A DNA stretch of 64,000 nt from Candidatus Opimibacter iunctus (GTDB taxonomy: Bacteria > Bacteroidota > Bacteroidia > Chitinophagales > Saprospiraceae): assembly GCA_016716665.1 (NCBI GenBank), contig JADJVH010000013.1:38824-102823 (forward strand), in the 5' to 3' direction. How positions within the stretch are numbered: the stretch's first letter is position 1; the number at the start of each line of letters is the position of its first letter. Position numbers and translations under genes: made by a program. Below are positions 8,706 to 59,750 of the stretch, piece by piece. The notes beneath the pieces were generated by a model. The model saw nothing but the letters and a program-made list of their open reading frames with translations. It was not told the DNA's origin and made no database searches.

Positions 8706-8750
8706 GCGGAAGAGGCTGAAGAGGCCAAAGGGGCTGAAGAGGCTAAAGGC
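8706..8750. repeat. Tandem 9-mer array, 5 copies, consensus GCTGAAGAG
   Basis: gcggaagag gctgaagag gccaaaggg gctgaagag gctaaaggc. The reverse-complement family recurs at 39214-39275. Confidence 0.9.
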
Positions 8751-8789
8751 AGGTGCGCAATTAGCAAAGATGCTGAGTCACACCCACAC

Positions 8790-8837
8790 TTCTCACGTTC
8801 TCACGTTCTCACGTTCTCACGTTCTCACGTTCTCACG
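8790..8837. repeat. Tandem 8-mer array, 6 exact copies of TTCTCACG, preceded by the CA-rich leader cacacccacac
   Basis: ttctcacg x6, read directly from the sequence. Confidence 0.95.
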
Positions 8838-8867
8838 ATCACCGATCACTCGATCACCGATCACTCG
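8838..8867. repeat. Tandem 15-mer, 2 copies of ATCACCGATCACTCG; overlaps the stop codon of the minus-strand gene 8861-9580
   Basis: atcaccgatcactcg atcaccgatcactcg. The TGA (tca at 8861-8863) of the convergent gene lies inside copy 2. Confidence 0.9.
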
Positions 8868-9580
8868 ATATCAAAGTCTACGTGATAATGATCATCATGA
8901 AACATATTGACGAGATCACTGAGATGAGAGATGATACGAATTTCCCTTCGCTGTAGTTCTTTACCGGATGACGTGCTGTAGAGTTCATCCTGCATATTGG
9001 TATTGAACAATATCTTATGAATCTTCAGGCCGTTTTGACGGGCAGCATCATCCAGGGCAAGGATGTGTCTGGCCATAGTCTCAAAATCAATCTGTGTCTT
9101 ATGGTTGATCGCTAATTGCCCATCCTGGTTGAATTGCAACAGGTAGTGCAGCAATCCCCACCGTGTGGTCCAGGTTTGTTTGTGATCTGTCCTGATCGTG
9201 GGGACCATAAAATCTACGCTTGTACCATTCTGATGCGTCCAGTGAAAAAGCATGCGCCCTCCTTTCCTTCGGGTACATTCCATCAGGATAAATTCTTTTC
9301 CGGGACAGGTGGTTTCGCAGGTTTTGTATGCATCAGTCAGCGTCTTGTAGACACGTGAGTTGACATACGCATTGTTGAGGATGTAATAACTGAAGCGGTC
9401 AAAGTAATGGAAGTTGTCACCCTTAAACGGCATGAGCCATCCGTTGCGCAATTTTCCTGAGCGGACGCTACCTTCAGAGACGGTGGCGCCTTCATTGGTG
9501 TGCACCATCTCCGGTATGGAAAGTATTCCAAACAGGATCACAATGGTGCCCAGGAATATCCAGCGCTTTTTTACGTTCAT
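8861..9580 (-). CDS. LAS-superfamily zinc peptidase resembling penicillin-insensitive murein endopeptidase (MepA/M74-like)
   Basis: N-terminal TM/signal segment. Motifs HWTHQNGTSVDF (H-x-x-H-Q-x-G-x-x-V-D) and FHDDHYHVDF resemble the MepA metal ligands. Confidence 0.55.
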   Translation of the reverse strand: MNVKKRWIFLGTIVILFGILSIPEMVHTNEGATVSEGSVRSGKLRNGWLMPFKGDNFHYFDRFSYYILNNAYVNSRVYKTLTDAYKTCETTCPGKEFILMECTRRKGGRMLFHWTHQNGTSVDFMVPTIRTDHKQTWTTRWGLLHYLLQFNQDGQLAINHKTQIDFETMARHILALDDAARQNGLKIHKILFNTNMQDELYSTSSGKELQRREIRIISHLSDLVNMFHDDHYHVDFDIE

Positions 9581-9633
9581 TGATGACCTGACAGGTTAAT
9601 AAGTAATATGGTCCGTAAGATAGGCTTTCCGTC

Positions 9634-10230
9634 TTATCGCCTGTGTTTTCCTCCGGTCCACTGATGGCCTGAAAGGAATTTCTCACCGGAGTCAATTGCC
9701 CCTGCCTCAATCGTAGTACCCATTGAATCATTCCAACGGTTGAGGTATCCAAATAAAGCGACCACTCCTGCTATTTCTACAATCTCTCCCTCATCCCAGT
9801 GTTGACGCAATGCTTCAGCGATCGAGTCATCTACAACATTTGGGACAGAAGATGCAGCTACAGCAAAGTCCAGTGCAGCTCTTTCAGCGGAGTTAAAGGC
9901 GGGGTGTGTCTTGTATTCCCAGATGTGCTTCAACTGATCTTCAGATGCCCCATATCGCTCAGCCGCCCTGATCCCATGCGCCTGGCAATACTGACATCCG
10001 GTCGTATAACTCGAGATATACGCGATCAGTCTTTTCAATGCGCTGGTCACCCGACCATGGTTTTCCATCACTGCCTGGTTCATCCGGATAAACGCCTGCG
10101 CGATATGCGGACGACGCTGCATCGTCTTCACACTGTTGGGACAAAACCCAAGCGTTTCATTATAAAACTTAACCAGTTCCGTGATAGAGGGATCGGTTTC
10201 TGGCAGGGGAGATACAAGAGGAGTTTTCAA
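9634..10230 (-). CDS. Carboxymuconolactone decarboxylase / AhpD-like peroxidase-related protein
   Basis: CQYCQAHG CxxC motif in a 198-aa all-helical protein. Apparent TTG start. Confidence 0.6.
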   Translation of the reverse strand: MKTPLVSPLPETDPSITELVKFYNETLGFCPNSVKTMQRRPHIAQAFIRMNQAVMENHGRVTSALKRLIAYISSYTTGCQYCQAHGIRAAERYGASEDQLKHIWEYKTHPAFNSAERAALDFAVAASSVPNVVDDSIAEALRQHWDEGEIVEIAGVVALFGYLNRWNDSMGTTIEAGAIDSGEKFLSGHQWTGGKHRR

Positions 10231-10231
10231 G

Positions 10232-10245
10232 GTTGTGAGTTGTGA
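10232..10245. repeat. Heptamer GTTGTGA x2
   Basis: gttgtga gttgtga. The same word is tandem at 59583-59610. Confidence 0.7.
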
Positions 10246-10255
10246 GTTTTATTTA

Positions 10256-10366
10256 CCCCTAAATCCCCTGAAAGGGGACCTTTTTCAATAGTATCATGAT
10301 AAAATGAAAGTAATAATTTTTATGTCCAATTGATTGGAGAAGGGTCCCCTTTAGGGGATTTAGGGG
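10256..10366. repeat. 111-bp element: 24-25-nt inverted arms (CCCCTAAATCCCCTGAAAGGGGACC / GGTCCCCTTTAGGGGATTTAGGGG) around a 62-nt AT-rich core; MITE-like or long hairpin
   Basis: The arms at 10256-10280 and 10343-10366 are reverse complements apart from 1 nt. A third solo arm lies at 32927-32950. Confidence 0.8.
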
Positions 10367-10399
10367 CCCATTTTTCACTTTTCTTTTTTCGTTTTTCAC

Positions 10400-11533
10400 T
10401 TAAAGAGTGCCTCGCAGTTCTTGTTCCCTTTCAATCGCCTCAAACAGTGCCTTGAAATTTCCCTTCCCAAATGACTTCGCCCCCTTGCGCTGGATGATTT
10501 CAAAAAACATAGTAGGCCGTGACTGGACAGGCTTGGTGAATAACTGTAAGAGATAACCTTCATCATCCCTGTCGATCAGGATACCCAGTTCTTTCAGCGG
10601 AGCCAGGTCTTCATCGATCGTACCGACACGGTCCAGGATGGTATCGTAGTAGGTAGAAGGTACTCTCAGGAATTCAACGCCTCTAGCCTTAAGCTTGGTG
10701 ACGGTATCGATGATATTGTCTGTTGCTACAGCCAGGTGCTGCACACCTTCATCTTCATAAAAATCGAGATACTCTTCGACCTGTGATTTCTTCTTGCCAG
10801 CAGCTGGTTCGTTGATCGGAAACTTGATGAAGCCATTGCCGCTGCTCATCACTTTACTCATCAGGGCCGTGTACTCTGTAGAGATATCTTTGTCATCAAA
10901 GGTGAGGATGTTCCTGAAGCCCATGACTTCTTCATAGAAGTTGACCCAATGATTCATCCGGCCAAGCGCTACGTTACCTACCATGTGGTCGACATATTTT
11001 AAGCCGACCGTGGTAGGATGGTAGTCCGTCTTCCATGCATTATAGCCTGGCAAAAACAAGCCGTGATAATCTTTACGTTCTACAAAGATGTGTACGACCT
11101 CGCCGTAGATATGGATGCCTGAGCGGACCACACGGCCATGCTCATCTTCTTCAACGGTAGGCTCCATGAATGATTTGGCGCCACGTGAAGTAGTTTGCTT
11201 CCATGCATCCGTAGCATCATCCACCCACAGGGCGATGACCTTGACACCGTCACCATGCTTGTCGATGTGGCGTCCGATCGCTGAATCGCTATGGAGCGGA
11301 GAGGTCAGGACCAATCGGATCTTGTCCTGGGCAACTACATAGGATTCTATATCCTTTTCTCCGGTTTCAAGTCCCTTGTAGGCAAAGTCCTGGAAGCCAA
11401 ATGCTGTTTTATAGTAATGAGCGGCTTGTTTTGAATTGCTGACATACAGCTCTACATAATCCGTTCCCTTGAGTGGAAGGAAATCTTCCGCGACGCTTAG
11501 GCCCGGAGCTTCTTTTTGTGTTAAGACTGACAT
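10400..11533 (-). CDS. hppD: 4-hydroxyphenylpyruvate dioxygenase
   Basis: 377 aa with two vicinal-oxygen-chelate halves and the C-terminal ...GNFKALFEAIEREQELRG typical of HPPD. It sits in a cluster with fahA and hmgA. Confidence 0.9.
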   Translation of the reverse strand: MSVLTQKEAPGLSVAEDFLPLKGTDYVELYVSNSKQAAHYYKTAFGFQDFAYKGLETGEKDIESYVVAQDKIRLVLTSPLHSDSAIGRHIDKHGDGVKVIALWVDDATDAWKQTTSRGAKSFMEPTVEEDEHGRVVRSGIHIYGEVVHIFVERKDYHGLFLPGYNAWKTDYHPTTVGLKYVDHMVGNVALGRMNHWVNFYEEVMGFRNILTFDDKDISTEYTALMSKVMSSGNGFIKFPINEPAAGKKKSQVEEYLDFYEDEGVQHLAVATDNIIDTVTKLKARGVEFLRVPSTYYDTILDRVGTIDEDLAPLKELGILIDRDDEGYLLQLFTKPVQSRPTMFFEIIQRKGAKSFGKGNFKALFEAIEREQELRGTL

Positions 11534-12817: not shown

Positions 12818-12942
12818 GTCAACTAATTCAATTTATTAAACAACTTATTCCTAACTGCTCATGAGAGGCCACGGTTTGAAAGCCGTGGCAATTCAATTTC
12901 CTGACTTAGGAGCCAGGTCTTCCTCTCATGAAATATTTTTAT

Positions 12943-12977
12943 CCTTGCCCCTTGCTCCTTGCTCCTTGCTCCTTGCT
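12943..12977. repeat. Tandem heptamer array, 5 copies of CCTTGCT (CAAGGAG/AGCAAGG on the sense strand of the hmgA-fahA operon); overlaps the hmgA stop codon
   Basis: ccttgcc ccttgct ccttgct ccttgct ccttgct. The hmgA TAG is cta at 12976-12978. The same word occurs at 42715-42742. Confidence 0.95.
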
Positions 12978-14133
12978 ATTCAAGCCACGATTGAAAATAC
13001 TTCCCATCATCAATCGCCAACGCCTGTTCCGTCACCATCAGTGGGGCAAACGTATCAATCATCACCGCCAGTTCCTGAGTATACTTTTGCCCGATGCTTC
13101 TTTCATAAGCACCTGGTGCAGGACCGTGAGGAATACCGGCAGGATGTAGTGTGATATGGCCTTGTTCGATATTGTTGCGGCTCATAAAATCTCCATCGAC
13201 ATAGTAGAGCACTTCATCTGAATCGATATTGCTGTGGTTGTATGGCGCAGGGATGGCTTTAGGATGATAGTCATAGAGACGGGGGCAGAATGAACATACT
13301 ACAAATGCTTTCGTCTCAAATGTCTGGTGCACTGGAGGTGGTTGGTGCACGCGTCCGGTGATGGGTTCGAAATTGTGGATGGAAAAGGCGTAAGGAAAAT
13401 TGTATCCATCCCAGCCTACGATATCAAATGGGTGTGTGGCATATACCATTTCGTGGAGGTATCCTTGCTTCTTGATCTTGATCAGGAAGTCACCTTTCTC
13501 ATCAAAGGTTTCGAGATGGGAAGGCATCTTGTAATCTCTTTCACAAAAAGGAGAGTGCTCCAGCAATTGGCCAAACCAGTTGCGATACCGTTTTGGTGTA
13601 TAGATCGGATGAAAAGATTCTGCATACAGGAGTCTGTTTTCTTCGGTATCAAAATCAATCTGGTAGATCATGCCTCGCGGGATGACCAGGTAATCACCAT
13701 ATTCGAAAGGGATATTGCCAAGAAATGTCCGTAATGTCCCTGAGCCTCTGTGTACGAAGATCAATTCGTCCGCATCTGCATTTTTATAGAAGTAGGTGGT
13801 CAGTGATTTGGTTGGTGCAGCCAGTCCGACATGGATATCCTTATTGACCAACAATGGATACCTCGATTCGAGCCAATCATTGCCTGGCGGCACATTAAAG
13901 CCTTGAAGCAGCCGGGCTTTCATATTGTGCTCGACGGCGATCTTAGGCATTACATTTTTTGGTTCGGCTACGCTCCTGACCTGGGTGGGGCGATGCAGGT
14001 GGTAAAGGAGGGACGACATTCCGTCAAACCCCACAGTACCAAAGAGTTGCTCGTAATGAAGGCCACCACCGGGTTTCTCAAAAACCGTGTGCCTTTTCTG
14101 GGGAATGGTCCCGAGTTTATGGTAGATGGGCAT
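12976..14133 (-). CDS. hmgA: Homogentisate 1,2-dioxygenase
   Basis: 385 aa, starting MPIYHKLGTIPQKRHTVF... It is the short bacterial HGD form with a cupin core and sits adjacent to fahA and hppD. Confidence 0.85.
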   Translation of the reverse strand: MPIYHKLGTIPQKRHTVFEKPGGGLHYEQLFGTVGFDGMSSLLYHLHRPTQVRSVAEPKNVMPKIAVEHNMKARLLQGFNVPPGNDWLESRYPLLVNKDIHVGLAAPTKSLTTYFYKNADADELIFVHRGSGTLRTFLGNIPFEYGDYLVIPRGMIYQIDFDTEENRLLYAESFHPIYTPKRYRNWFGQLLEHSPFCERDYKMPSHLETFDEKGDFLIKIKKQGYLHEMVYATHPFDIVGWDGYNFPYAFSIHNFEPITGRVHQPPPVHQTFETKAFVVCSFCPRLYDYHPKAIPAPYNHSNIDSDEVLYYVDGDFMSRNNIEQGHITLHPAGIPHGPAPGAYERSIGQKYTQELAVMIDTFAPLMVTEQALAIDDGKYFQSWLE

Positions 14134-16560: not shown

Positions 16561-17166
16561 ATGTCAAAAATTAAAGAAGTTTCCCGCTGCCACTGGTGCG
16601 GTACTGACCCCCTCTATGTCAGTTATCATGACAATGTATGGGGTGTCCCCGAATATGACAGTAAGGCATTGTTCGCCAAACTTATCCTCGACGGGGCACA
16701 GGCCGGCCTGAGCTGGATCACGATCCTCCGACGCCAGGAAGGCTATATGGCTGTCTTCGACAATCTGGATCCTGACAAGGTAGCCCGCTATACAGATAAG
16801 AAACTCGAAAGGATACTCCTCGATGACCGCATCATCCGCAACCGCCTCAAGGTATACTCTGCACGCTCCAATGCACAAGCTTATCTTAATCTGCAGGATC
16901 AGGGCTTAGACTTCAGCCAACATCTCTGGTCATTTGTAGATGGCAAGCCCATCGTCAACAAGCTCAGAGGAATCAGCGATTTTCAAGCGACATCACCTAT
17001 CAGCGACGCTATGAGCAAAGACCTGAAAAAACGCGGTTTCAAATTCGTGGGCTCCACCATCATTTATGCCTTTATGCAAGCTGTCGGGATGTACAATGAC
17101 CATGTTGTCTCCTGCTTTCGTCACGATGAAGTAAAAAATGCAAAGGGCAGAGGGCATAGAGCATAG
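16561..17166 (+). CDS. tag: DNA-3-methyladenine glycosylase I
   Basis: CHWCGTDPLYVSYHDNVWGVP...LILDGAQAGLSWITIL is typical of Tag. The last 7-9 codons (..AKGRGHRA*) and the stop codon are encoded by the heptamer array 17140-17197. Confidence 0.9.
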   Translation: MSKIKEVSRCHWCGTDPLYVSYHDNVWGVPEYDSKALFAKLILDGAQAGLSWITILRRQEGYMAVFDNLDPDKVARYTDKKLERILLDDRIIRNRLKVYSARSNAQAYLNLQDQGLDFSQHLWSFVDGKPIVNKLRGISDFQATSPISDAMSKDLKKRGFKFVGSTIIYAFMQAVGMYNDHVVSCFRHDEVKNAKGRGHRA

Positions 17167-17197
17167 TGCGCATAGAGCAAAAGGCAGAGAGCATTAT
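17140..17197. repeat. Tandem heptamer array, about 8 copies, consensus GCAKAGR (reverse complement of the CYCTWTG family), with a 2-nt phase slip at 17168-17169
   Basis: gcaaagg gcagagg gcataga gcatagt (gc) gcataga gcaaaag gcagaga gcattat. Confidence 0.9.
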
Positions 17198-17332: not shown

Positions 17333-17418
17333 CCTATGCCCTAAGGGGCTCTCTGCCCTTTGCCCTATGCACTCTGCACTCTGCCCTATGCACTATGCTC
17401 TTTGCACTATGCTCTATG
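17333..17418. repeat. Tandem heptamer array, about 12 copies, consensus CMCTWTG (ccctatg/cactctg/cactatg/ctctatg)
   Basis: From 17356: ccctttg ccctatg cactctg cactctg ccctatg cactatg ctctttg cactatg ctctatg. The same family occurs at 39168-39212. Confidence 0.9.
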
Positions 17419-17454
17419 CTTTTTTCCTACCTTCGCCCTTCGATTACACAAGTT

Positions 17455-19499
17455 ATGATCCATCCCCCCCAGCGATATATCGTGACATCGGCATTGCCAT
17501 ATGCCAATGGCCCACTCCATATAGGACATCTCACCGGTGCTTATCTCCCTGCTGATATTTTCGTCAGGATGCTGCGTATGCTCGATAATGATGTGGCTTT
17601 TATATGCGGCTCTGACGAACACGGCGCAGCAATCACCATCCGGGCCCTGAAGGATAACAGCACCCCTCAGGCCATTATCGATAAGTACCATGCACTCTTC
17701 CAGGAGACGTTTCTGAAAGCCGGCATCTCATTCGATATCTATCACCGTACCTCCTCACCACTGCACCACGAGACCGCCCAGGAATTTTTCAGATCACTGT
17801 ATGCCCAGGGCCAGTTTGTAGAAGAAGAGTCCGAACAATATTATGACCAGGAAGCCGGCAAATTCCTCGCCGATCGCTATATCAAGGGCACCTGCCCAAA
17901 GTGCAGCAACCCCGATGCATACGGAGACCAATGCGAACGCTGCGGTTCATCCCTCAGCCCACTCGAACTGATCAACCCCGTATCCACGATCACAGGGACT
18001 AAGCCAGAATTGCGAAAGACCAAACACTGGTATTTGCCTCTTGATAAATACGAATCCTGGTTGCGCACCTGGGTCGAAACCGGCGTCCTCGACGGCGTAG
18101 AACACCACGACCCTGCAGATTGGAAAACACACGTGATCGGCCAGTGCAAATCATGGCTCGATGGCGGATTACAACCCCGCGCCATGACCCGCGATCTCGA
18201 TTGGGGAGTTGATGTGCCACAGGAAATTCCAGGATCCGCCGGCAAGAAATTATATGTGTGGATGGATGCACCCATCGGCTATGTCTCTGCTACAAAGCAA
18301 TGGGCTGCCGACAATGGAAAGGACTGGAAAGCGTATTGGCAAGACCCTGAGTCTTCGCTCATCCATTTTATCGGCAAAGACAACATCGTCTTCCATTGCC
18401 TGATCTTCCCGGCGATACTCAAAGCACATGGGCAGTATAATCTACCTGTAAATGTTCCGGCCAATCAGTTTCTGAATCTCGAAGAACAAAAGATATCTAC
18501 TTCGCGCAACTGGGCGATCTGGGTACATGAGTTCCTCAATGAGAATCCGGATCAGACAGATGCATTGCGATATGTCCTGACGTACTCACCCATAAGTTTT
18601 GCGATGGCAAGGTGCCTGAGTTTGATGAGGATACACCGATCGTAGGTACCAGGGGTGATGATGAAGCTTCATGGCATGAAGTTGAAATGATGGACCTGTT
18701 TGACCGCATGTGGAATGTACAGGATGCCATTTCAAAATATGATTTCAGGGCTGGACTCAAGGCAATGCTGGACATTGCATCTGCAGGTAATCAACTCCTG
18801 CAGTTCAATGAGCCATGGAAAGCACATAAGGAGGATCCTGAAAGCGTAGTCGTCGTGCTCAACCTATGCATTCAATACCTTGGGGCATTGAGCTATGCTA
18901 TGCATCCATTTATGCCTGGCGCATCAGCACGTTTGAGGAAATTACTTGCACTCAATCCGATCATCGAACAAGGCTCATGGGTGACTACCCTTGATGCACT
19001 ATCGATGGGCGAAAAATTGATTCCCGAAGGACATACGATCAATCAGCCGGAACATCTCTTCAGCAGGATCGAAGATGAGTGGATCCAACTGCAGATTGCA
19101 AAGCTGCATGAAATGTCTGCTGCAGCGGTTATAGCAACAGCAGAAGCTGTCGAGGCTGCTCCTGTAGTAGAAAAGCCTGCTGTATCGTATGATGATTTTG
19201 CAAAACTGGACATCCGCACGGCTAGAATACTAGCCGCAGAAAGCGTACCTAAAGCAGATAAGCTACTCAAACTCACACTGGATGTCAATGGAGTGCAGCG
19301 CACCGTAGTGAGCGGCATTGCTAAACACTATAAGCCTGAAGATTTGCCTGGCAAGCATGTGGTTATCCTCGCAAACCTGGAACCGCGTAAAATACGCGGA
19401 GTAGAATCGCAGGGGATGATCCTGATGGCTGAATCAGGCGATGGCCAGCTTCATTTTGTGCAGGCTGCTACAGATGAAAGCGGTCTGGCTATCAGCTAA
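17455..19499 (+). pseudogene. metG: Methionine--tRNA ligase, interrupted by an internal deletion of about 36 codons plus a frameshift at 18574-18590
   Basis: ATG at 17455 gives [26 protein letters not shown] (HIGH motif). KISTSRNW is the KMSKS-type motif. The C-terminus carries a tRNA-binding (EMAP/Trbp111-like) domain, KLDIRTARILAAESVPKADKLLKL. ORF1 ends ...DALRYVLT then YSPISF... out of frame. ORF2's frame reads [17 protein letters not shown]. Between LRYVLT and VLTHKF, other MetRS carry about 36 aa (ANAPETKD..FQARNNNELV..GNFVNR..). Confidence 0.85.
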
Positions 19500-23157: not shown

Positions 23158-23372
23158 CGATTTTGTCCTCACACGGGACTATGGCATAGAGTGGGGCAGA
23201 CAAAACTTCCACAACGGCCTCGTATTCCTCGGCTTCCTCTCCTACGAGCAGTGCCTCACGAGGACAGACCTCAATCACGCAACCATGACCAAGGAAATCC
23301 TTTCCTCCATCCGAAATGAAATCTTATCAGCAGATTGATGCCACATCCCCCTCAAAACCCACTCACCCTCAA

Positions 23373-23693
23373 CTGGTAGCTGGTGGCTGATAGCTGATAG
23401 CAAATTCTTAATCACGCCCACTCTCACTCCCACACTACCGGTAGCTGGTAGCTGGTAGCTGACGGCTGTCAGCTCAAACCAAATCCCTATCCCCCACATA
23501 CTCAGATCTCACACAACTGGTAGCTGGTAGCTGGTAGCTAGTAGCTGGTAGCTGACGGCTGATAGCTGACGGCTTTTAGTCAAATCCCTAACACACTCAC
23601 ACTCTAACACACACCACTGGTAGCTGGTAGCTGGCGGCTGATAGCTGACAGCTGATGGCTGATAGCTGATAGCTGACGGCCGATAGCTCAAAC
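23373..23693. repeat. Higher-order repeat: four heptamer arrays (CTGGTAG then CTGAYRG), each preceded by a related 32-37-nt CA-rich leader
   Basis: The arrays are 23373-23400 (4 copies), 23438-23479 (6), 23517-23579 (9) and 23617-23693 (11). The leaders are caaattcttaatcacgcccactctcactcccacacta, caaatccctatcccccacatactcagatctcacacaa and tcaaatccctaacacactcacactctaacacacacca. The last heptamer, ctcaaac, contains the fumC stop codon (tca at 23688-23690). Confidence 0.95.
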
Positions 23694-25070
23694 CATATCT
23701 TCCGCCCTGACCCACTTATCAAACTGGTCAGCAGTCAGATACCCAAGTGCAATTGCCGCTTCCTTCAGCGTCGTATTCTCCTTATGCGCTTTCTTGGCGA
23801 TTTCAGCAGACTTGTCATAACCGATATGCGTATTGAGTGCAGTCACCAGCATCAGCGAATTGTCAAGATGCATCTTGATCCGTGCATGATTAGGCTCGAT
23901 ACCGTCAACACAATGTTCTACAAAGCTGTGACATGAATCAGCAATCAACCTGGCAGATGTCAGGAAGTTAAAGATGATCACCGGCTTGAATACATTGAGT
24001 TCAAAGTGTCCTTGCATAGCACCTACATTGATGGCCACATCATTACCGATTACCTGGGCCATACACATAGTCATAGCCTCAGATTGCGTTGGATTGACTT
24101 TGCCTGGCATGATCGATGAGCCGGGTTCATTGGAAGGGATGTTGATCTCTCCTATGCCACTTCGAGGTCCTGATGCAAGCAAGCGGATGTCATTGGCTAT
24201 TTTATTGAGCGAAACCGCTACTGTTTTCAATGCACCATGCGCCTCCACGATGGCATCGTGGGCGGCCAGGGATTCAAATTTATTTTTTGCAGTGACAAAC
24301 GGATAGCCGGTCAGTTCTCCGATTTTCTTAGCTACTTTCTTATCGTACCCTTTTGGTGCATTGAGGCCTGTGCCTACCGCGGTGCCACCAAGGGCAAGTT
24401 CGGTGAGATGGGGCAGGGTATTCTTGATTGCTTTTATACCATGTTCAACTTGTGACGCATAGCCACTGAATTCCTGGCCTAGTGTCAAAGGCGTTGCATC
24501 CATCAGGTGTGTACGGCCTATCTTGACAATAGCCTTGAATTCCTTTGCCTTTGCATCAAGCGATGCATGCAGGAGTGTCAACGCAGGAATGGTATGCTCT
24601 ACGAGATAGCTGAAGGCAGCAATGCTCATCGCGGTCGGAAAGGTATCATTGGAGGATTGCGACTTATTCACATCATCATTGGGATGCAGATATTTCTTAG
24701 CATCATCCAGTTTGCCTCCCTTGATGACATGGCCACGATTGGCGATCACTTCATTGAGGTTCATATTGGATTGTGTACCTGACCCCGTTTGCCATACGAC
24801 CAGCGGGAAATGATCATCGAGTTGACCTTTGGAGATTTCATCACACACTTTGCCGATCAGTTTGGCTTTGGGTTGAGGCAATACCCCGAGATCCATATTG
24901 ACCAGTGCGGCAGCCTTTTTAAGGACCGCAAATGCCCTGATGATTTCGATAGGCATACGGTGGCCACCGATTTTAAAGTTGTCTTTGCTTCGTTGTGTTT
25001 GTGCGCCCCAATATACATCAGCAGGTACCTGTACAGGTCCCATACTGTCTTTTTCTATTCTGTATTCCAT
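23688..25070 (-). CDS. fumC: Class II fumarate hydratase
   Basis: 460 aa. [16 protein letters not shown] signature. N-terminal [28 protein letters not shown]. Confidence 0.95.
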
Positions 25071-39125: not shown

Positions 39126-39136
39126 TGCCATATGTT

Positions 39137-39154: not shown

Positions 39155-39167
39155 GAGCAGGAATCTC

Positions 39168-39212: not shown

Positions 39213-39213
39213 C

Positions 39214-42673: not shown

Positions 42674-42701
42674 GTAGGGGTTCAATATTTTGAACCCCTA
42701 C
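42674..42701. other. Perfect 12-bp-stem palindrome (gtaggggttcaa tatt ttgaacccctac)
   Basis: Read directly from the sequence. It lies in the divergent hemW / M36 intergenic region. Confidence 0.85.
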
Positions 42702-42714
42702 TGGTCAATATGCC

Positions 42715-42742
42715 CCTTGCTCCATGCCCCTTGCTCCTTGCC
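42715..42742. repeat. Heptamer array, 4 copies of the CCTTGCT family
   Basis: ccttgct ccatgcc ccttgct ccttgcc. Confidence 0.85.
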
Positions 42743-42750
42743 CGCCGCCT

Positions 42751-42782
42751 CTCACTGTCTCACTGTCTTACTGTCTTACACC
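42751..42782. repeat. Tandem 8-mer array, 4 copies (ctcactgt ctcactgt cttactgt cttacacc)
   Basis: Same family and same order of variants as at 27971-28002 and 33174-33205. Confidence 0.9.
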
Positions 42783-45800: not shown

Positions 45801-46604
45801 GATAATGGCAATGTAATTGATTCAGTTTCGGTCTACCTGATTTCAGGGGACAACAGGGTACTACTCAATATGGAAATTCCAGTGCCAGGGGAATATAGTC
45901 TGGCCAACCCTAGCCAAAATCTCTATCGCAATGATGGTGGAGCAAATTATCCATACAAGATTGACAACCTGATATCCATCACCGGTTCTAATGCAAGTGG
46001 CGAGGAGCAGCGCTATTATTACTATTTCTACGACTGGGTGGTCAAGGAAACACCTTGCCTGAGCCCTCCGGTTGATGTAGTCGTCAACGTAGAGCCGGGT
46101 CCTTTGGCAGCTTTCTTTGCAGAGTCATTTGACCTGACTACTGATTTTACGGACCTTTCCACAGGGACACCAACTTCATGGATATGGAATTTTGGAGATG
46201 GCTCTCCGGTTTCCAATGAGCAAAACCCGACACATGCTTATCTTCAGGAGGGCACCTATCAGGTTGAACTCACCGTCTCCAATGGGAACTGCTCGAGCAC
46301 TTACATCCAGCCAGTCTATATCTCTAATACTACTGGTACCAGAGATATCAACCAGGCCTATGCGTTGAAGTTGTATCCTAACCCAGCCACCGACGAAGTA
46401 ACCATTGATTTTGATCAGGCATATACAGGCAAGATCCAGCTCAATATCACTGATGCCACCGGCAGCCTGGTGATCTCCAGATCTCTGGAGAGTGCTGGCG
46501 CACGTTATGTCGTAAATACAACAGCACTCCCTTCAGGCACCTATCAGTTTCAATTCATTGGTGAGCTAGGCGTATCTGTAAGAAGGATCTCCATCTTAAG
46601 ATAA
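42888..46604 (+). CDS. Secreted M36 (fungalysin-like) metalloprotease with FTP propeptide, PA domain insert, PKD domains and a T9SS C-terminal sorting domain
   Basis: 1238 aa with a signal peptide. HEYAHGLSNRL is the HExxH motif. The PA-like insert is GKIAIIDRGNCPYIKKVNAAEAAGAIGVIVV. PKD signatures are WDFGDGNTSQQERPKHSYAVPGEYTVTLIV and WNFGDGSPVSNEQNPTHAY. The C-terminal LKLYPNPATDEVTIDF... is a Por secretion tail. Confidence 0.85.
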   Translation: MFNPLSILRSATLVLLITTSFSAEAQRFQAGIKNYLLREKGNWHLSDQDISDYAVSDQYDNPSTGITYTYLNQRVSGIEIFNAVSTMIIRDGKVVYYANRFQPDAAKKANAITPAITAEQAIEAASAHLGLSLVQQPTLLETETNRLRTTYTKAGISKEDIIVQLVLVSAPEALRLAWNVILAPTGTADWWNIRIDALNGQFIEKNNWTTYCSFGIGHAHDHSGDIVDQAVKTNVEANQVLSGNGTYNVFPLPVEAPSFGDRLFLNDPRNILASPYGWHDTDGFEGPEFTITRGNNVYAYEDLLSFDSPGYSPDGGPQLNFDFPLDLYRPTIQNQDAALTNLFYTNNMLHDILYAHGFDEASGNFQQTNYSPDGFGEDFVVAEGQDGGGINNANFSTPDDGLNGRMQMYMWGIDVKGYLEVHGPDSIAGHYDALPATFGPSLDIPVTGFAAILKDAVDPFGNACDSIVNAAELVGKIAIIDRGNCPYIKKVNAAEAAGAIGVIVVSNSSAPVVMGGGTSGIPAMMISQVDGESLKSQLNAGENVEVTLLRGPSDRDGSVDNGIIVHEYAHGLSNRLTGGPLRSNCLYNAEQGGEGWSDSLALLLTIEPGDKGTDARGMGTYAANNDSDEGLRRYPYSTDMGINPQTYGDVAGNQEVHATGEIWCMALWEMTWKLIDAEGFDPDWYNGTGGNNTALRLVIEGMKWQPCSPGYEDARNAILHADTVLYQGAHRCMIWEAFAKRGLGAYADQGESTSTFDQTEDFEIPNTCKTATLAPTAYFAVDNTVDCNGHFIFRDKSLDVPQYFHWDFGDGNTSQQERPKHSYAVPGEYTVTLIVSNSIGADTIQQNVVYGTPETPLVSGNTAVCEGGYTTLNADVIQYNTAVWSIGDSVVWTGTTYKTPPLTTSETYSVAQSTAKSPLHVGPTGNAFWTGDIHNTGFEGKLFFETKVPLRLVSVLVYAQGASDRIIRLYDDNGNVIDSVSVYLISGDNRVLLNMEIPVPGEYSLANPSQNLYRNDGGANYPYKIDNLISITGSNASGEEQRYYYYFYDWVVKETPCLSPPVDVVVNVEPGPLAAFFAESFDLTTDFTDLSTGTPTSWIWNFGDGSPVSNEQNPTHAYLQEGTYQVELTVSNGNCSSTYIQPVYISNTTGTRDINQAYALKLYPNPATDEVTIDFDQAYTGKIQLNITDATGSLVISRSLESAGARYVVNTTALPSGTYQFQFIGELGVSVRRISILR

Positions 46605-46609
46605 AAATC

Positions 46610-46659
46610 AGCGTGCGATTATTGTTCCACACAGGGCAATAATCGCACGCTATTTTTTA
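46610..46659 (+). terminator. Rho-independent terminator (15-bp perfect stem)
   Basis: agcgtgcgattattg - 12-nt loop - caataatcgcacgct followed by atttttta. Confidence 0.85.
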
Positions 46660-46682
46660 TCCCATGACCTTTGCCTCCTAAG

Positions 46683-46720
46683 CCCATAAACCTATCAACC
46701 CATAAACTCATCAACCTCAA
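46683..46720. repeat. Tandem 16-mer, about 2.4 copies (cccataaacctatcaa cccataaactcatcaa cctcaa); overlaps the stop codon of the GH30 gene
   Basis: The TGA (tca at 46717-46719) of the minus-strand gene lies in the partial third copy. Confidence 0.85.
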
Positions 46721-48177
46721 TATACCAGCGTCTCTATCGAATGCGCCGCAATCACCTCTTCTATAGCGTTTGATCCCACATAGAGTTTGTAAGTGACCGG
46801 CTTGTTCGTCATATTCAGTACCACAGTAGCCATCGTTCCATCTTCATTTAAAAATGAGGTACTTAACAATACACTTCTGCTGGATGCTGTACTAACACGT
46901 TTCGCATTTGGGCGAATGAACTTCGAAAAATGGCCGATGTAATAATAGGAGGGTGTTAAGATTAATTCTCCTGTACGAGTATCTGCATGTATAGGCGCAA
47001 AGCATAGATTGTTTACATGATTTGGGCCACCTGTTTCATCCAGTAGTAGATTCCAGTCTGTCCAGGCTACGGTTCCCTGGTTGAAATCATTGATCATCGA
47101 TTTACCATATCGCTCCGCATTCGGCCAGTATTGGTATTTGAGGGAATCAAATTTCTCGTTGCATCCTTCTGTAAATATCAGGTTCTTGTCCGGATAGGAT
47201 TCATTGATCTGGTCCAGGTTGCTAAACATCGGCTCTCCTCCGGTCCAGGTTTCATACCAGTGGAATCCGATCCCCCATACATATTGCGCTGCTTCAGGGT
47301 CACTCAGGATGACTTCAGCACGATGATTGATGAGGTCCCGGTTGTGGTCCCACACAATGATTTTTTTCTCACCCAATCCTTCCTTTTTCAGCGTAGGCCC
47401 TAAATGGTTTTTTAAAAAATCACGCTCTTCTTCTGCAGTATAAATGCATGACTCCCACGTTTGTGTAGCCATCGGCTCGTTCTGCACAGTCAATCCCCAG
47501 ATAGGAATGTCCAGTGCTTCGTACGCCTTGATAAACTTTGCATAGTACTGTGCCCATGATGGATAAAATGCAGGCAATAGTTTTCCACCGCGCAACATAT
47601 TCTTGTTGTCTTTCATAAATGCTGGTGGGCTCCATGGGCTCACATAAAGCGGAATCCGGCCTCCTGCAGTTTCAATGATTCTCTTGATCAGCGGGATACG
47701 ATGTTTTTTGTCGTGTTCGATATTGAACGTCCCCAATGCTTTGTCTTCATCAGAAACATACGTATAGCTCTCACTACTAAAATCACAACTATGGATCGTG
47801 GTTCGAATGAGCGAGTATCCAATGCCTTCAGCCTGATCAAAATAGGCTTTTAAAAAGGCCTGTTGGTTTTCTGGCGGCAGGGTAGCAAAAACTTCTGCGG
47901 TCGCGTCTGTGACTGCGCCTCCGATGCCCATGAAGGATTGAAATGTTTTGGCAGGATTGACAAAGATGGCTACTTCTGTTTCCAATGGTTGCTTTGCTGC
48001 CTGGAATGATTTCGTCCCTGTTGGTGTCAGGCGCAGTGCAGAACTATCGGCCGTCGTATAAATTTTTACTTCCTTTCCTTTGACATCATATGACGCAGGC
48101 GCTATTTCAGATGTTGAAGGTTGTGTACATCCGGAAAAGAAAACCCACAACGCTGTAATGACTATTGGTAGTTTCAT
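46717..48177 (-). CDS. Glycoside hydrolase family 30 (glucosylceramidase-like, GH30_1-type), lipoprotein
   Basis: Strong resemblance to GBA-type GH30: FMGIGGAVTDATAEVF, IGYSLIRTTIHSCDFS, LYVSPWSPPAFMK, the acid/base motif VQNEP and the nucleophile motif LIFTEGC. Signal peptide plus Cys (FFSGC). Confidence 0.85.
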   Translation of the reverse strand: MKLPIVITALWVFFSGCTQPSTSEIAPASYDVKGKEVKIYTTADSSALRLTPTGTKSFQAAKQPLETEVAIFVNPAKTFQSFMGIGGAVTDATAEVFATLPPENQQAFLKAYFDQAEGIGYSLIRTTIHSCDFSSESYTYVSDEDKALGTFNIEHDKKHRIPLIKRIIETAGGRIPLYVSPWSPPAFMKDNKNMLRGGKLLPAFYPSWAQYYAKFIKAYEALDIPIWGLTVQNEPMATQTWESCIYTAEEERDFLKNHLGPTLKKEGLGEKKIIVWDHNRDLINHRAEVILSDPEAAQYVWGIGFHWYETWTGGEPMFSNLDQINESYPDKNLIFTEGCNEKFDSLKYQYWPNAERYGKSMINDFNQGTVAWTDWNLLLDETGGPNHVNNLCFAPIHADTRTGELILTPSYYYIGHFSKFIRPNAKRVSTASSRSVLLSTSFLNEDGTMATVVLNMTNKPVTYKLYVGSNAIEEVIAAHSIETLVY

Positions 48178-56411: not shown

Positions 56412-59400
56412 TTAGAGCTCCCCGATATACTCATTTAACGAACCATCCTTCTCCAGCTCCAGTTTCTTCTTCAACCTGTACTTACTCTGTTCCACCCCAT
56501 TGACCGTGATATTCAGGATAGCAGCGATCTCGGTATTGGAAAATCCCATCCTTATAAAGCAACATAACCGGCTTTCGGTAGCCGAGATATGCGGATGCCT
56601 GAGGTGGAGCTTATGGACAAAGTCCTGGTGGACCTGATTAAAGGTGAGCTGAAACTCATCCCAGTAGTTTTTCTGGGTCAGTTCGTTTTCGATGGATCTG
56701 GTCAGGCGGTGCAACTCCCGGGACTTGGGCTGATGTTCATCCGTTTCAATCTTCCGGATTTCTCCCTTGAGGTCCTCGAGAAACTGGTTTTTATGCGCGC
56801 TCTGCAGGACGGAGGCGCTGAGCTGGGCCTGTTTATTCAGGATGTCCTTCTCCAGGTTTTCATTCTGTAAGCGCAGGATTTCTTGTTCTGCCGCCATGGC
56901 ATGCTGCCGAAACCTGAGCTTTTGTCGGTTCAGCAGGAATTGGATCATCCCCAGTACCACTATAACACCAGCACCTATCGTCGCCAAAATGAACCACCAG
57001 GTGGTCCAGAACGGTGGCGAGACAATGATCTTCAAAGTGCGGGGAGCCGTATTCCATGCTCCATCACTATTGGAAGCCTTTACTTCAAGGATATACTCAC
57101 CGCCGGGCAATGAAGAATAGTTTGCAAAACGCTGTTTGGGCCCCACGAACCGCCAGGTAGTATCAAACCCCATAAGACGGTAAGCAAATTGGTTTTTGTC
57201 AGGTTGAGAATAATCGGTGGTCGTGAAGCTGAACTGTATCCCTTTGTCCAGGTAGGAGAACCGAACAATTGTTGTAGAATCATTGAGCGGACCGGAAAGG
57301 ATAGTCCTGCCTTCAAACAAGCCAATAGGGATGGATTGGTTGGAGAGACTGAATTCTGTAAAGACAACTTTAGGTGCACTGGTATTTTCGCGCACCTGGT
57401 CAGGCAGGATGAAAGAATAACCATTAGTACTGCCCAGGATCAAGCGCCCGTCATTCAGCCTCAGTGCGGCACCGGGATTGTACTGGTTGTTTTCGAGAAA
57501 CGGCTCCGACCCTACTTTGATAAACCGACCCTCCTTTTTGTTCCATCGCACGATCCCTGCCTGAGTGGTGATCCATAGGTATCCTTGCGGACCCTGTACA
57601 ATACTATTGATCATATTGGAAGGCAGGCCATCTTCAACCGAATAAGCGTGAAATGTTTCATTGGCGGGTTGGTATGCATTGAGTCCGGCGTTTTCTGTTC
57701 CGATCCATATCGTGCCCTCATCATCCTGGTAGAGGCACCGGATTTTTTCACTTGAGAGGCTGAGCGTGTCGTGAGCATTATGGTGATATTGAGTGATATG
57801 GAATGGGGTAGTGGAATGATCGATTCGGCTCAGGCCATTATTTTCTGTGGCAATCCAAAGCCATGGGCGGGTTTTGTCAAGTAAGATGTCAATGACCTGA
57901 GTCCCGGAGATGCTGTTTTTATTATTCGGATCAGGTTGAAAACGCATAAATGTGTTTTGACCCGGTTTCAGATAACTAACCCCTGCACCTAATGTACCTA
58001 TCCACAAGCCTCCATCTGGTGCAAGTTCAAGATCCCAGACATTGTTATGACTCAGACTTGTCAGGTCACCCGCTATATTTTGAAATTGCTTCACGATCCC
58101 TGCACCTGGTTTATACAGATACAATCCTCGGGCAAATGTCCCAAGCCAAAGGTTGCCATCGGGAAGTGAAACCAGGCTCGTGATCACATTCAGGCCTGGT
58201 GGATGATTAGCCGATTTTTCAATGGAGACCAGCCGTACAGGATTCTTTCGCACATCCAATTGAAACAACCCACCGCCATCGGTGCCCAGCCAGACATTCC
58301 CATCCTTGTCCTGGTCGAGGCAGAGGACAGAGCGTAGGCCCTCCAGTCTTTCCAGCGCATACTGCCGGTCCATGACGAATGGAGGGAAGATAGTTTTATG
58401 CAGATTAATACCACCATTGAAGGTGCCTATCCATAGATTATTGGACGAATCAAACATCAGGTCGTACAGCGCGTCTGAATTGAGCGAGTTGAGAAACGCT
58501 GGTTGGTATCCGTAATGCTTCCATTCATCCGTCGATGGATCAAAATAATTAAGGCCACCTCCATCTGTTGCGATCCATAATTTTCCATGTGCATCGGGTA
58601 CCAGGTCTGTGATCCTTCTATTGCTCAGTCCTGCACCGGTCTGCGGATTGGGTAGAAACCGGTCAATGACCTTGAGCTGTTGCAAATCAATCTCATACAA
58701 GCCGCTGCCTTCCGTGCCGACCCAGAGATTGCCATTGGTGCCCAGGCAAAGCGATTTAGCGAATCCATCCATGTCATTCCCATCATCGCTATGTATGGTG
58801 TGCAAAGAATCTGTTGACCAGTCAAACAAACTGATCCCCTTGCCTGCTGTTCCGATCCATATCCGACCACTGGGATCTTCCTGAAAATCAAAAACAAAAT
58901 CATTGTTGAGCCTCCTGTTGTCTGGCGCACACGTCGTGCAGAAATGCGCGATCTTTTTATACTCCCGGTCAAACACAATCGTACCGGCGTTGTAGGTACC
59001 AAGCCAAAGATTCCCCCGGCTATCCTGGAATATGGATCTCACCGTTATGGTATTCCAGTCAACAGTGTTGTCTTCTTTAAAAGGGAAACGAAGAAACCTC
59101 CCCGTAGTTCTTTCCAACACGCTGACACCACCATTGAGATGGCCTATCCAGATATTACCCGCCTCATCATTCCATAGCGTCAGTATGGATTGACTTTTGA
59201 TTGCATATGGATTCTTAGGATCCGGCAGGAATACCTTAAACTCATATCCATCAAACCGGTTCAGTCCAAACCGGGTACCTGCCCAGATCATCCCCAATTG
59301 ATCTTCGAGCAAGGCATGTACCGTGGTGTAGGACAGACCATCATCCACGGTCAGGTGATCAAACGAAAAAGTCGATGCATTCCGCTGACCGGCCACATGT

Positions 59401-59465
59401 CCACACAGTATCAACAGGCTGAAGAGGCTTGGAAGGTAAAGGGAAGTAGGGCGCGATCTGGTCAT
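56412..59465 (-). CDS. Y_Y_Y / two-component-regulator-propeller sensor fused to a LuxR-type HTH (one-component PUL regulator)
   Basis: 1017 aa. It contains many WIGT/WLGT propeller repeats, a Y_Y_Y-like Ig domain (GEYILEVKASNSDGAWN), one TM helix (WWFILATIGAGVIVVLGMIQF), a coiled coil, and a C-terminal HTH ATESRLCCFIRMGFSNTEIAAILNITVNGVEQSKYRLKKKL. Confidence 0.85.
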   Translation of the reverse strand: MTRSRPTSLYLPSLFSLLILCGHVAGQRNASTFSFDHLTVDDGLSYTTVHALLEDQLGMIWAGTRFGLNRFDGYEFKVFLPDPKNPYAIKSQSILTLWNDEAGNIWIGHLNGGVSVLERTTGRFLRFPFKEDNTVDWNTITVRSIFQDSRGNLWLGTYNAGTIVFDREYKKIAHFCTTCAPDNRRLNNDFVFDFQEDPSGRIWIGTAGKGISLFDWSTDSLHTIHSDDGNDMDGFAKSLCLGTNGNLWVGTEGSGLYEIDLQQLKVIDRFLPNPQTGAGLSNRRITDLVPDAHGKLWIATDGGGLNYFDPSTDEWKHYGYQPAFLNSLNSDALYDLMFDSSNNLWIGTFNGGINLHKTIFPPFVMDRQYALERLEGLRSVLCLDQDKDGNVWLGTDGGGLFQLDVRKNPVRLVSIEKSANHPPGLNVITSLVSLPDGNLWLGTFARGLYLYKPGAGIVKQFQNIAGDLTSLSHNNVWDLELAPDGGLWIGTLGAGVSYLKPGQNTFMRFQPDPNNKNSISGTQVIDILLDKTRPWLWIATENNGLSRIDHSTTPFHITQYHHNAHDTLSLSSEKIRCLYQDDEGTIWIGTENAGLNAYQPANETFHAYSVEDGLPSNMINSIVQGPQGYLWITTQAGIVRWNKKEGRFIKVGSEPFLENNQYNPGAALRLNDGRLILGSTNGYSFILPDQVRENTSAPKVVFTEFSLSNQSIPIGLFEGRTILSGPLNDSTTIVRFSYLDKGIQFSFTTTDYSQPDKNQFAYRLMGFDTTWRFVGPKQRFANYSSLPGGEYILEVKASNSDGAWNTAPRTLKIIVSPPFWTTWWFILATIGAGVIVVLGMIQFLLNRQKLRFRQHAMAAEQEILRLQNENLEKDILNKQAQLSASVLQSAHKNQFLEDLKGEIRKIETDEHQPKSRELHRLTRSIENELTQKNYWDEFQLTFNQVHQDFVHKLHLRHPHISATESRLCCFIRMGFSNTEIAAILNITVNGVEQSKYRLKKKLELEKDGSLNEYIGEL

Positions 59466-59582
59466 AATTGCCTCGGGTCACTATCGTTGTATCGAGGGGG
59501 AAAATAGGGGATTTTGGTGGGATGGGGAGAGGGGTTTGACAGATAGATCAAGTCCGAAAGAGGAGGTCATGTGTTTTCGAGA

Positions 59583-59688
59583 ACTGTGAGTTGTGAGCTG
59601 TGAGTTGTGAGTATGTCACGAGTCAGACGTGAGAGTAAGTGGCGAGAGTAAGTTGTCAGAGTATGTGGCGAGAGTCAGTCGTGAGTGA
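59583..59688. repeat. Degenerate tandem array: GTTGTGA heptamers (59583-59610), then GTGAG/GTAAG/GTCAG-rich words that resemble the reverse complement of the CTYACTGT octamer family
   Basis: actgtga gttgtga gctgtga gttgtga gtatgtc acgagtc agacgtg agagtaa gtggcga gagtaag ttgtcag agtatgt ggcgaga gtcagtc gtgagtg. Confidence 0.75.
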
Positions 59689-59701
59689 CAAATTAAATTC
59701 T

Positions 59702-59750
59702 CTGGCAGCTGGCAGCTGGTAGCTAAACGCTGATAGCTGACAGCTCAAAC
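59702..59750. repeat. Heptamer array, 7 copies of the CTGGYAG then CTGAYAG family, ending in CTCAAAC, which contains the stop codon of the O-methyltransferase gene
   Basis: ctggcag ctggcag ctggtag ctaaacg ctgatag ctgacag ctcaaac. The stop is tca at 59745-59747. Confidence 0.9.

Follow-up and report, generated by a model that had tools for sequence, protein, structure and literature searches.

Arrays in the intergenic regions of the window

We analysed a 64-kb stretch of DNA from Candidatus Opimibacter iunctus (Saprospiraceae; contig JADJVH010000013.1, positions 38,824 to 102,823), hereafter the window, in which 11 of the 37 intergenic regions of at least 30 nt carry arrays of short, tandemly repeated units. 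The window has a G+C content of 47% and an ordinary content of housekeeping and polysaccharide-utilization genes. Its housekeeping genes include fumC, metG, tag, uvrC, a methylmalonyl-CoA mutase gene and hppD/fah/hmgA for tyrosine degradation, and it also encodes a type IX secretion system (T9SS)-dependent M36 peptidase and a SusC/SusD/GH30 locus. Both its T9SS markers and the relatives of its FumC assign the DNA to Saprospiraceae, Bacteroidota.

Tandem Repeats Finder (TRF) detected arrays with periods of 7, 8, 9, 13-16 and 21 at essentially all of the places where an earlier note on this DNA had described a mosaic of tandem repeats filling eleven intergenic regions. With a score threshold of ≥40, the window contains 20 arrays covering 861 nt, compared with 0-4 arrays (about 1, typically ~27 nt long) in each of 20 dinucleotide-preserving shuffles. 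Periods of 7, 14 and 21 predominate. Perfect adjacent heptamer duplications occur 18 times, against ~4 expected from length alone, and the 13-mer CTCACTGTCTTAC is found six times at ≤1 mismatch (0.02 expected). When the threshold is set at ≥36, 861 of the 1072 array bases are intergenic and make up 11.8% of the intergenic DNA. Convergent spacers carry arrays in 5 of 8 cases, tandem spacers in 4 of 22, and divergent spacers in 2 of 7.

The arrays are thus real, although some stretches that had been listed with them are not tandem. A miniature inverted-repeat transposable element (MITE)-like sequence, GTC-TCCT-GAC hairpins and a palindrome are found instead in 10232-10366 and 32894-33150, as well as in parts of 39043-39275 and of 42674-42710. 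The previously tallied 1.5-2 kb of array DNA summed whole listed regions, and the genuine amount is ~0.9-1.2 kb. Each claimed recurrence of a tandem word at unlinked loci can be read directly in the sequence. CCTTGCT does recur, although not as a separate family; it is a rotation of CTCCTTG, which places it in one family with CYCTWTG. Unit variants are one substitution apart (CTGGTAG/CTGGTGG/CTGATAG/CTGACAG/CTGACGG; CTCCTTG/CTCTTTG/CTCTATG/CACTATG). The description of the arrays as non-coding is almost correct, but several genes end within an array, whose units provide the stop codons at 8861, 12976, 17164, 23688 and 59745.

We agree that the arrays are not clustered regularly interspaced short palindromic repeats (CRISPR), since their 7-16-nt units are contiguous, and 24-47-nt repeats with unique spacers and cas genes are absent from the window. 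Assembly or sequencing artefacts are a negligible explanation. Two suspicious internal deletions in window genes (metG and an S9 peptidase gene) indicate that the assembly is possibly not flawless, but relatives that were assembled independently (ENA, JGI, NCBI and Logan) have homologous arrays at these sites, which rules artefact out as a general explanation.

Turnover of repeat units at conserved gene ends

The nearest DNA recovered comes from three relatives, L119, L128 and L129, which are 85-90% identical to the window. L128 has a nucleotide identity of ~88-90%, and the FumC of L119 is 99% identical to that of the window, yet its DNA is only 86-90% identical. L126 (~75% identical) was used as an outgroup, and L130-L133 are more distant Saprospiraceae or Lewinellaceae picked solely by FumC similarity. 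In alignments with these relatives, genes and non-repeat spacers fall within single high-scoring segment pairs that are broken at the arrays.

Copy number varies between related genomes in unit steps; this can be seen past fumC in the window and L128, and in the arrays at the S9 peptidase stop codon in four taxa. Past fumC, L128 carries (CTGGTAG)n(CTGAYRG)n modules as in the window, with different heptamer counts and two modules rather than four, while a 37-nt spacer is 100% conserved. L119 has GTGAAAA/GTGAAGA heptamers at this site instead, though it is about equally diverged from the window.

Position is retained where the repeat unit is not. An array starts 0-5 nt past the fumC stop in seven of eight lineages, including the window, with L131 alone lacking one. 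In L119, L126, L130, L132 and L133 this array is purine-rich on the sense strand and is built from unrelated units (GTGAAGA, 13 copies of GAGTAAC, GAGAGGGA, AAAGGAG), and it is kept in L132 and L133 despite different downstream neighbour genes. An array follows the S9 peptidase stop in all six taxa where this site could be compared; across four of them the units are CTCACTGT, 14-15-mers of ACTCACAATTCACG, or TCTCACGT, and a terminal CTTACNNTCTYACAC block is common to all four. The stop codon of a thioredoxin-like (Trx) gene is followed by an array in 4/4 taxa, and C-rich arrays directly adjoin the upstream side of a conserved promoter-like metG block, again in 4/4 taxa. At loci that were picked regardless of repeats, arrays account for 19-24 nt of every kb in four taxa and for 4 nt in L133, and the trait is therefore family-wide.

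These comparisons show that slippage or unequal exchange reshapes the arrays where they stand, one unit at a time, with single-base variants being amplified and modules duplicated, and that arrays are occasionally copied between loci. Gene-end position and strand composition outlast species and genus splits, while the repeat unit is replaced. An origin of the arrays by slippage is well supported.

Copying is evident at the Trx stop, where the window array (33153-33205) is near-identical over a shared core to the composite at the S9 stop (27941-28002), while L129 and the outgroup L126 carry TTTTCAC arrays. A composite of roughly 35 nt is almost identical at three unlinked loci in the window. 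Replacement of one locus by a copy from another could indicate that the arrays derive from a small mobile element inserting at gene ends, either a MITE or a repetitive extragenic palindromic (REP) sequence mobilized by a REP-associated tyrosine transposase (RAYT). Genuine MITE-like and palindromic elements share the spacers, and the Tag-metG unit resembles an element of 290 nt whose inverted termini are made of arrays. The copying, however, is explained just as well by gene conversion between similar arrays; the arrays are direct tandem repeats that vary in unit steps, and no target-site duplications were seen. Neither a transposase, as already noted for this DNA, nor an integrase or RAYT is encoded in the 64 kb. 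We regard a mobile element as very improbable.

The related comparison of the arrays with enterobacterial bacterial interspersed mosaic elements (BIMEs) does not hold as a statement of membership. In BIMEs, imperfect palindromes (REP units of ~35 nt) alternate in orientation and are joined by defined linker motifs. The arrays resemble them in that short repeat types are combined in spacers, often at gene 3' ends or between convergent genes, but their units are direct, tandem and non-palindromic, and an inverted pair of arrays occurs in just 1 of the 11 regions.

Orientation of the arrays relative to adjacent genes

The arrays are mostly located at 3' ends, beginning at or within a few nt (0-5) of stop codons, and their strand composition follows the adjacent gene. 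In a manual tally over all Saprospiraceae loci examined, 27 of the arrays ≤35 nt past stops have a C-poor/purine-rich sense strand, 4 have a C-rich one and 1 is neutral, while arrays upstream of starts or promoters are C-rich and G-poor on the sense strand. All 4 exceptions belong to the CTGRYAG family, whose terminal GCTCAAAC gives the TGA stop on the other strand. Array-free genes have no C/G bias in their 3' flanks; the strand rule therefore belongs to the arrays, and a general purine bias of 3' flanks was rejected as its cause.

Several other accounts of this arrangement were also rejected. Replication strand does not determine orientation, given that the + strand carries both orientations. 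The arrays do not serve to place stops in all three frames, since AAAGGAG, GAGAGGGA, AAAAGGCGG and AGCAAGG are stop-free, and Shine-Dalgarno (SD)-like ribosome binding by purine arrays fails because many units are not SD-like. Bacteroidota mostly do not use SD sequences. The arrays also do not qualify as phase-variation repeats, which are located within ORFs or between the promoter elements of surface or virulence genes and switch expression when units change, as they flank housekeeping genes (fumC, metG, tag, hppD, mutase) and mostly lie past the stop codon.

Arrays of CTGGTAG extend far beyond this family. A scan of genome contigs from many phyla for three consecutive CTGGTAG units yielded at least 118 stretches among the matches listed, in Acidobacteriota, Gemmatimonadota, Chromatiaceae, Peribacteria and others, and genomes often have several such loci. 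At 58 of the 118 listed loci, one of the first TAGs of the array terminates a same-strand open reading frame (ORF) of ≥100 codons, a proportion that is an upper bound because high G+C content inflates spurious ORFs. An inverted CTACCAG partner array, with which a long hairpin could form, lies downstream at 12 of the listed loci and upstream at 7.

Such partners raise the question of whether the arrays act as hairpins or cruciforms, that is, as intrinsic terminators or REP-like stabilizers of 3' ends. The inverted arrays between tag and metG fold with z = -11.5, an array of 41 GTAATCR units in L131 closes with inverted units followed by a T-run, and CTGACAG and CTGATAG units contain the near-palindromes CAGCTG and UAGCUG. 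Most window arrays, however, have no inverted partner, C-poor or G-poor arrays are unable to self-pair, and a consensus terminator scan was not enriched over shuffles (21 vs 16 and 22 vs 17). Hairpin formation is real at Tag-metG and in L131 but not general, and as an explanation of the arrays as a whole it is quite improbable. G-quadruplex formation was rejected, since most arrays hold 0-2 GGG or CCC runs in total.

A limited vocabulary of words is common to non-orthologous sites in other genera: CTGGTAG/CTGATAG (seen in the window, L015, L028, L063, L126 and L128), GCTCCTT, CTCACGTT and GGTTTATGGG-type units. The composite order of GTGAG-type, CTGGTAG and CTGATAG units is identical in window 59584-59750 and in Ca. 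Opimibacter L015. This sharing would be expected of multivalent platforms for sequence-specific DNA- or RNA-binding proteins, or for nucleoid-organizing proteins, and post-transcriptional regulators have been proposed for the TAACTGA repeats of other bacteria (MacGregor, 2015; PMC4679880). At one orthologous position, however, the units are unrelated, so that a reader would have to accept GAGTAAC, GAGAGGGA, AAAGGAG and GTGAAGA equally, and the arrays are mostly at 3' ends and not beside start codons like the TAACTGA arrays of Beggiatoaceae (PMC4679880). The replacement of the unit, with only strand composition and position kept, argues against sequence-specific readers, and we consider binding platforms improbable.

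Relation to known repeat families

The arrays are very probably long simple-sequence repeats of the heptamer-dominated class, with slippage dynamics. They consist of tandem units of 5-11 nt in excess of chance, prefer intergenic DNA, are most commonly heptamers and vary in unit steps. To our knowledge, the 2007 survey by Mrazek that defined the class did not cover Saprospiraceae. The class comprises repeats with units of 5-11 nt, among which heptanucleotides are the commonest in bacteria (Mrazek, 2007, as summarized in PMC4679880 and PMC4692102). According to these summaries, the repeats resemble the window arrays in their 7-9-nt units with heptamers foremost, intergenic excess, patchy phylogeny and proposed origin by slippage; the window differs in concatenating several unit families per spacer and in the ~12% of its intergenic DNA that is occupied.

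Intergenic TAACTGA arrays are known from Beggiatoaceae, cyanobacteria and five Bacteroidetes, and heptamer arrays in Gramella, Aequorivita, Elizabethkingia and Flexibacter are mixed with other heptamer repeats (MacGregor, 2015; PMC4679880). Strains differ there by indels of 7-nt increments, and orthologous spacers of close relatives can be array-free (PMC4679880). The window arrays are thus similar to the TAACTGA repeats in being intergenic heptamer arrays in Bacteroidetes with mixed heptamers and 7-nt-step indels. In contrast, 'Maribeggiatoa' arrays are forward-oriented just upstream of start codons, whereas those in the window are mostly at stops, and no TAACTGA dimers were found in the window. 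The novelty for Bacteroidota suggested in the earlier note was overstated, because mixed heptamer arrays had already been reported in Bacteroidetes in an equivalent description (PMC4679880). We found no Saprospiraceae-specific account of tandem repeats in the literature, and a scan of the window at Rfam gathering thresholds gave no match.

The strand rule has a precedent in the G-rich heptamers GGGAATC of Xanthomonas and GGGGAYT of Nostoc, which are stop-proximal (Rehm, 2015; PMC4692102). As in that study, arrays that overlap a stop codon or lie no more than 50 nt from it are G-rich on the sense strand, and those upstream of ORFs are G-rich on the antisense strand; this holds for 27 of the 32 3'-end arrays and for the arrays upstream of metG in 4/4 taxa. 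Occasional inverted pairs and variable copy number are further similarities. The differences are that GGGAATC and GGGGAYT contain G3-4 runs and form quadruplexes, whereas most window units have no G-run, and that the window has many unit families and not one. Neither GGGAATC nor GGGGAYT dimers were found in the window.

Heptameric repeats were without a detailed literature in 2015 according to the same study (PMC4692102), in which the short tandemly repeated repetitive (STRR) sequences of cyanobacteria are mentioned. The earlier note's comparison with these heptamers is apt, as several tandem heptamer families are dispersed at many loci. Mazel and colleagues are said to have described, in 1990, several distinct STRR heptamer families that are tandem and dispersed at intergenic loci. 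Unlike STRRs, the window arrays occur in another phylum, have other units and mix in units of 8, 9, 13 and 16 nt, and there are no tandem dimers of the reported STRR units CCCCAGT, TTGGTCA and CAACAGT in the window. We know of no settled role for intergenic heptamer repeats in bacteria since STRRs were described around 1990.

The value of the present observations lies in the persistence of position under unit turnover, in a strand rule that spans many unit families, and in the testable hypothesis that they provide. The most informative features, which are absent from the earlier note, are strand orientation, stop-flush placement and persistence despite unit turnover. This lineage is a natural experiment in which an array stays at a gene end across genera while its unit is wholly replaced.

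A possible role at transcription boundaries

Because position and strand composition are kept while the unit is not, we infer that whatever maintains the arrays must sense composition, and that the arrays are probably read by something composition-sensing. The pattern points to a composition-based role, such as Rho loading or insulation, or to a transcription-linked bias in expansion. Overall, we consider a known repeat class that is remodelled by slippage, with a more doubtful role at transcription boundaries, to be the best explanation, and a reasonably likely one.

From composition alone, our leading proposal, possible but rather doubtful, is that the arrays could be transcription insulators akin to Rho-loading sites. 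A polymerase entering a gene from outside, by convergent read-through at the 3' end or upstream read-through at the 5' end, would make unstructured, C-rich and G-poor RNA, the type on which the termination factor Rho loads, and the 3' untranslated region (UTR) of the outgoing mRNA would be a poor Rho substrate. A Rho utilization (rut) site comprises ~78 nt of unstructured RNA with more C than G and regularly spaced C (PMC6407284). Over 78 nt, C:G ratios in the window reach extremes of 33:2, 30:4, 27:3 and 35:5. Arrays read into the adjacent gene account for the first three of these; the stretch with 35:5 (59489-59566 on the minus strand) is found immediately upstream of the array at 59584, with reading again in the entering direction. 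Several arrays are shorter than 78 nt. The 46683-46716 array is situated between the GH30 stop and a bidirectional terminator and is therefore probably transcribed as 3' UTR. We found no literature linking tandem repeats to rut sites, and sigma-70 promoter scans are uninformative for Bacteroidota.

Several points weigh against the overall explanation. Some arrays are 17-36 nt long, far under the 70-80 nt usually quoted for Rho loading, and the functional step is an argument from composition. The CTGRYAG family violates the strand rule at every Saprospiraceae site seen, being C-rich on the sense strand of the gene that receives its stop (twice in the window and in L128, L028 and L015). When arrays are assigned to the nearest gene automatically, the rule is weaker than in the manual tally, with 28 arrays obeying it and 14 not, in large part because short spacers are ambiguous. 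Orthologous sites are non-independent observations, and the sample is small, at 64 kb of source DNA and ~170 kb from relatives. Persistence could also be explained by self-renewal through slippage instead of selection.

This last point leads to the main alternative, namely that the arrays are functionless, self-renewing repeats that slippage regenerates against deletion bias, with a mechanistic origin of the strand rule. For example, a G/purine-rich non-template strand might form R-loops that promote expansion to detectable size, which would explain the 3' arrays well. Unit-step variation with complete unit turnover is as expected, no sequence is conserved except for short terminal blocks, and stop-flush junctions would arise if all non-essential spacer DNA were deleted. 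Arrays of one heptamer word occur in many unrelated phyla, which suggests a generic property of replication, a proposal made earlier (Mrazek, 2007, cited in PMC4679880). However, the arrays upstream of promoters, C-rich on the sense strand in 4/4 species, are not readily explained in this way, and neither the persistence of arrays at the fumC stop with differing neighbour genes nor the conservation of terminal blocks such as CTTACNNTCTYACAC at ~75% nucleotide divergence is accounted for. We regard functionless repeats as possible but rather doubtful.

A broader form of the composition-based role is that heptamer-class arrays are widespread gene-boundary elements set by composition, in which slippage would reinvent the unit and Rho would provide the insulation. 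What is selected would be an unstructured, strand-asymmetric tract, flush with a stop or just upstream of a promoter, that is poor in C in the outgoing mRNA and rich in C for an incoming polymerase. This generalization is speculative and, in our estimation, unlikely. If true, STRR-type repeats would gain a function, the rule shared by Saprospiraceae, Xanthomonas and Nostoc would be explained, and so would the rule for CTGGTAG arrays in Acidobacteriota, Gemmatimonadota and Chromatiaceae.

The arrays also have practical consequences. Being hypervariable, they could be used as markers to type Saprospiraceae strains; they also interrupt alignments, and genes can receive their stop and several C-terminal codons from them. 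Repeat regions of this kind are often where the contigs of related strains end (MacGregor, 2015; PMC4679880).

Array catalogue and neighbouring elements

Table 1. Tandem arrays and other repeated elements of the window (window coordinates; units as on the + strand).
Position	Feature	Strand or composition	Context	Basis
8705-8749	GGCTGAAGA 9-mer array, ~4.9 copies	G-rich on +	25 nt past stop of + strand MFS transporter gene 7403-8680	TRF, sequence reading
8790-8869	TTCTCACG x6 perfect, then CGATCAC(T) x4.5	C-rich on +	last unit contains stop codon 8861-8863 of minus-strand gene 8861-9580	TRF
10232-10248	GTTGTGA x2.4	C-rich on sense strand of gene 9634-10230	directly upstream of listed TTG start of gene 9634-10230 (-)	TRF
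10254-10368	MITE-like element, ~115 nt, 34-nt inverted termini (CCCCTAAATCCCCTGAAAGGGGACC...)		solo terminus at 32926-32950	
10369-10398	CATTTTT/CACTTTT array (opposite strand: GTGAAAA family)		2 nt from stop of 4-hydroxyphenylpyruvate dioxygenase gene 10400-11533 (-)	TRF
12942-12977	TCCTTGC x5.1		last unit overlaps stop of hmgA-like gene 12976-14133 (-)	TRF
17134-17197	GCAWAGR heptamer array	purine-rich on +	encodes final ~9 codons and stop (17164-17166) of Tag glycosylase gene 16561-17166	sequence reading
17333-17424	CYCTWTG heptamer array	C-rich on +	just upstream of metG promoter-like block; inverted partner of 17134-17197, the pair folding as a long hairpin	
23373-23688	four (CTGGTAG)n(CTGAYRG)n modules ending in GCTCAAAC, CACAC/CTCAC-rich spacers between		final module gives TGA stop of fumC (23688-25070, -)	TRF
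27941-28002	CACAC-rich lead, CTYACTGT 8-mers, CTTACNN units		ends 2 nt from stop of S9 peptidase gene 28005-30581 (-)	sequence reading
32893-32916, 32996-33019, 33070-33093, 39104-39127, 39136-39156	small hairpins, core GTC-TCCT-GAC	+		
33153-33205	CCCACA x3.3, CTCACTGT x2.4, CTTACNN		ends 2 nt from stop of thioredoxin-like gene 33208-33705 (-)	TRF
39044-39087	CAGTSRC heptamers x6		overlaps nominal 5' end of ORF 37709-39097 (-), true start uncertain	
39168-39268	CYCTMTG heptamers, then GCCTCTTCA 9-mers x6.4 (reverse complement of the 8705 array)	C-rich on +	ends 20 nt before methylmalonyl-CoA mutase start at 39288	TRF
42674-42701	perfect palindrome GTAGGGGTTCAA-TATT-TTGAACCCCTAC, REP-like, GTAG start			
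42710-42782	CCCCTTGCTCCATG 14-mer (CTCCTTG family), then CTYACTGT x3.4 and CTTAC units		divergent spacer of hemW (-) and M36 peptidase gene (+)	TRF
46683-46716	CCCATAAACCYATCAA 16-mer x2.1		flush with stop of GH30 gene 46717-48177 (-)	TRF
59584-59679	GTGAGYT heptamers x4, then GAGAGTAAGTGGC 13-mers x3.8	G-rich on +; C-rich on sense strand of gene 56412-59465	upstream of regulator gene 56412-59465 (-)	
59702-59750	CTGGCAG/CTGGTAG/CTGATAG/CTGACAG module ending in GCTCAAAC		gives TGA stop (59745-59747) of gene 59745-60536 (-)	TRF

Several non-tandem elements share the spacers with the arrays (Table 1). The Trx-UvrC spacer of L126 holds a full inverted pair of the MITE-like termini, of which the window has one there. 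The GTC-TCCT-GAC hairpins have variable outer stems that are mutually complementary, and all five exact copies are intergenic; similar hairpins are found at orthologous positions in L126 and L129, and the family had no match in Rfam. The palindrome at 42674-42701 is also present in L126 (~7070-7130) in another spacer (S9-ADH), and it is therefore a dispersed element. Between the convergent M36 peptidase and GH30 genes, a strong bidirectional hairpin resembling an intrinsic terminator spans 46600-46661, with 25-nt arms that are 92% complementary and a flanking A-run and T-run.

The array of L131 at 955-1325 is a 287-nt run of ~41 GTAATCR heptamers that starts at the stop codon of a thioredoxin-like gene. 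The inverted units and T-run at its end form an intrinsic-terminator-like hairpin made of repeat units.

Genomes with several CTGGTAG loci include those of Thiorhodococcus, Marichromatium, Vicinamibacterales and Gemmatimonadaceae. In the window, a CTGGTGG variant at 23379-23386 creates GCTGGTGG, the E. coli Chi sequence, which is probably coincidental; arrays with the CTGGTGG variant can also be seen at Gemmatimonadaceae loci such as L035. Chi-like recombination hotspots were rejected as an account of the arrays, since GCTGGTGG at this position is limited to one family.

Two genes and one non-coding stretch show irregularities. The metG gene (17395-19499) is split into ORFs 17395-18645 and 18612-19499 with a break near 18581, where a deletion of ~110 nt relative to L119 and L126, bounded by two GTCCTSAC direct repeats, shifts the frame. 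Either metG is a pseudogene or the assembly is wrong at this essential gene. The gene for the S9 peptidase (858 aa; end at 28005-28030) stops ~58 codons (174 nt) short of its counterparts in L128 and L119. The missing end includes a GEPH motif in which the catalytic histidine may lie, and the downstream array is kept. Lastly, 23160-23339 is conserved although non-coding; it corresponds to the 3' end of a longer ORF in L128, apparently a full-length gene, and looks like a gene remnant; the arrays on the fumC side begin 35 nt past its former stop codon.

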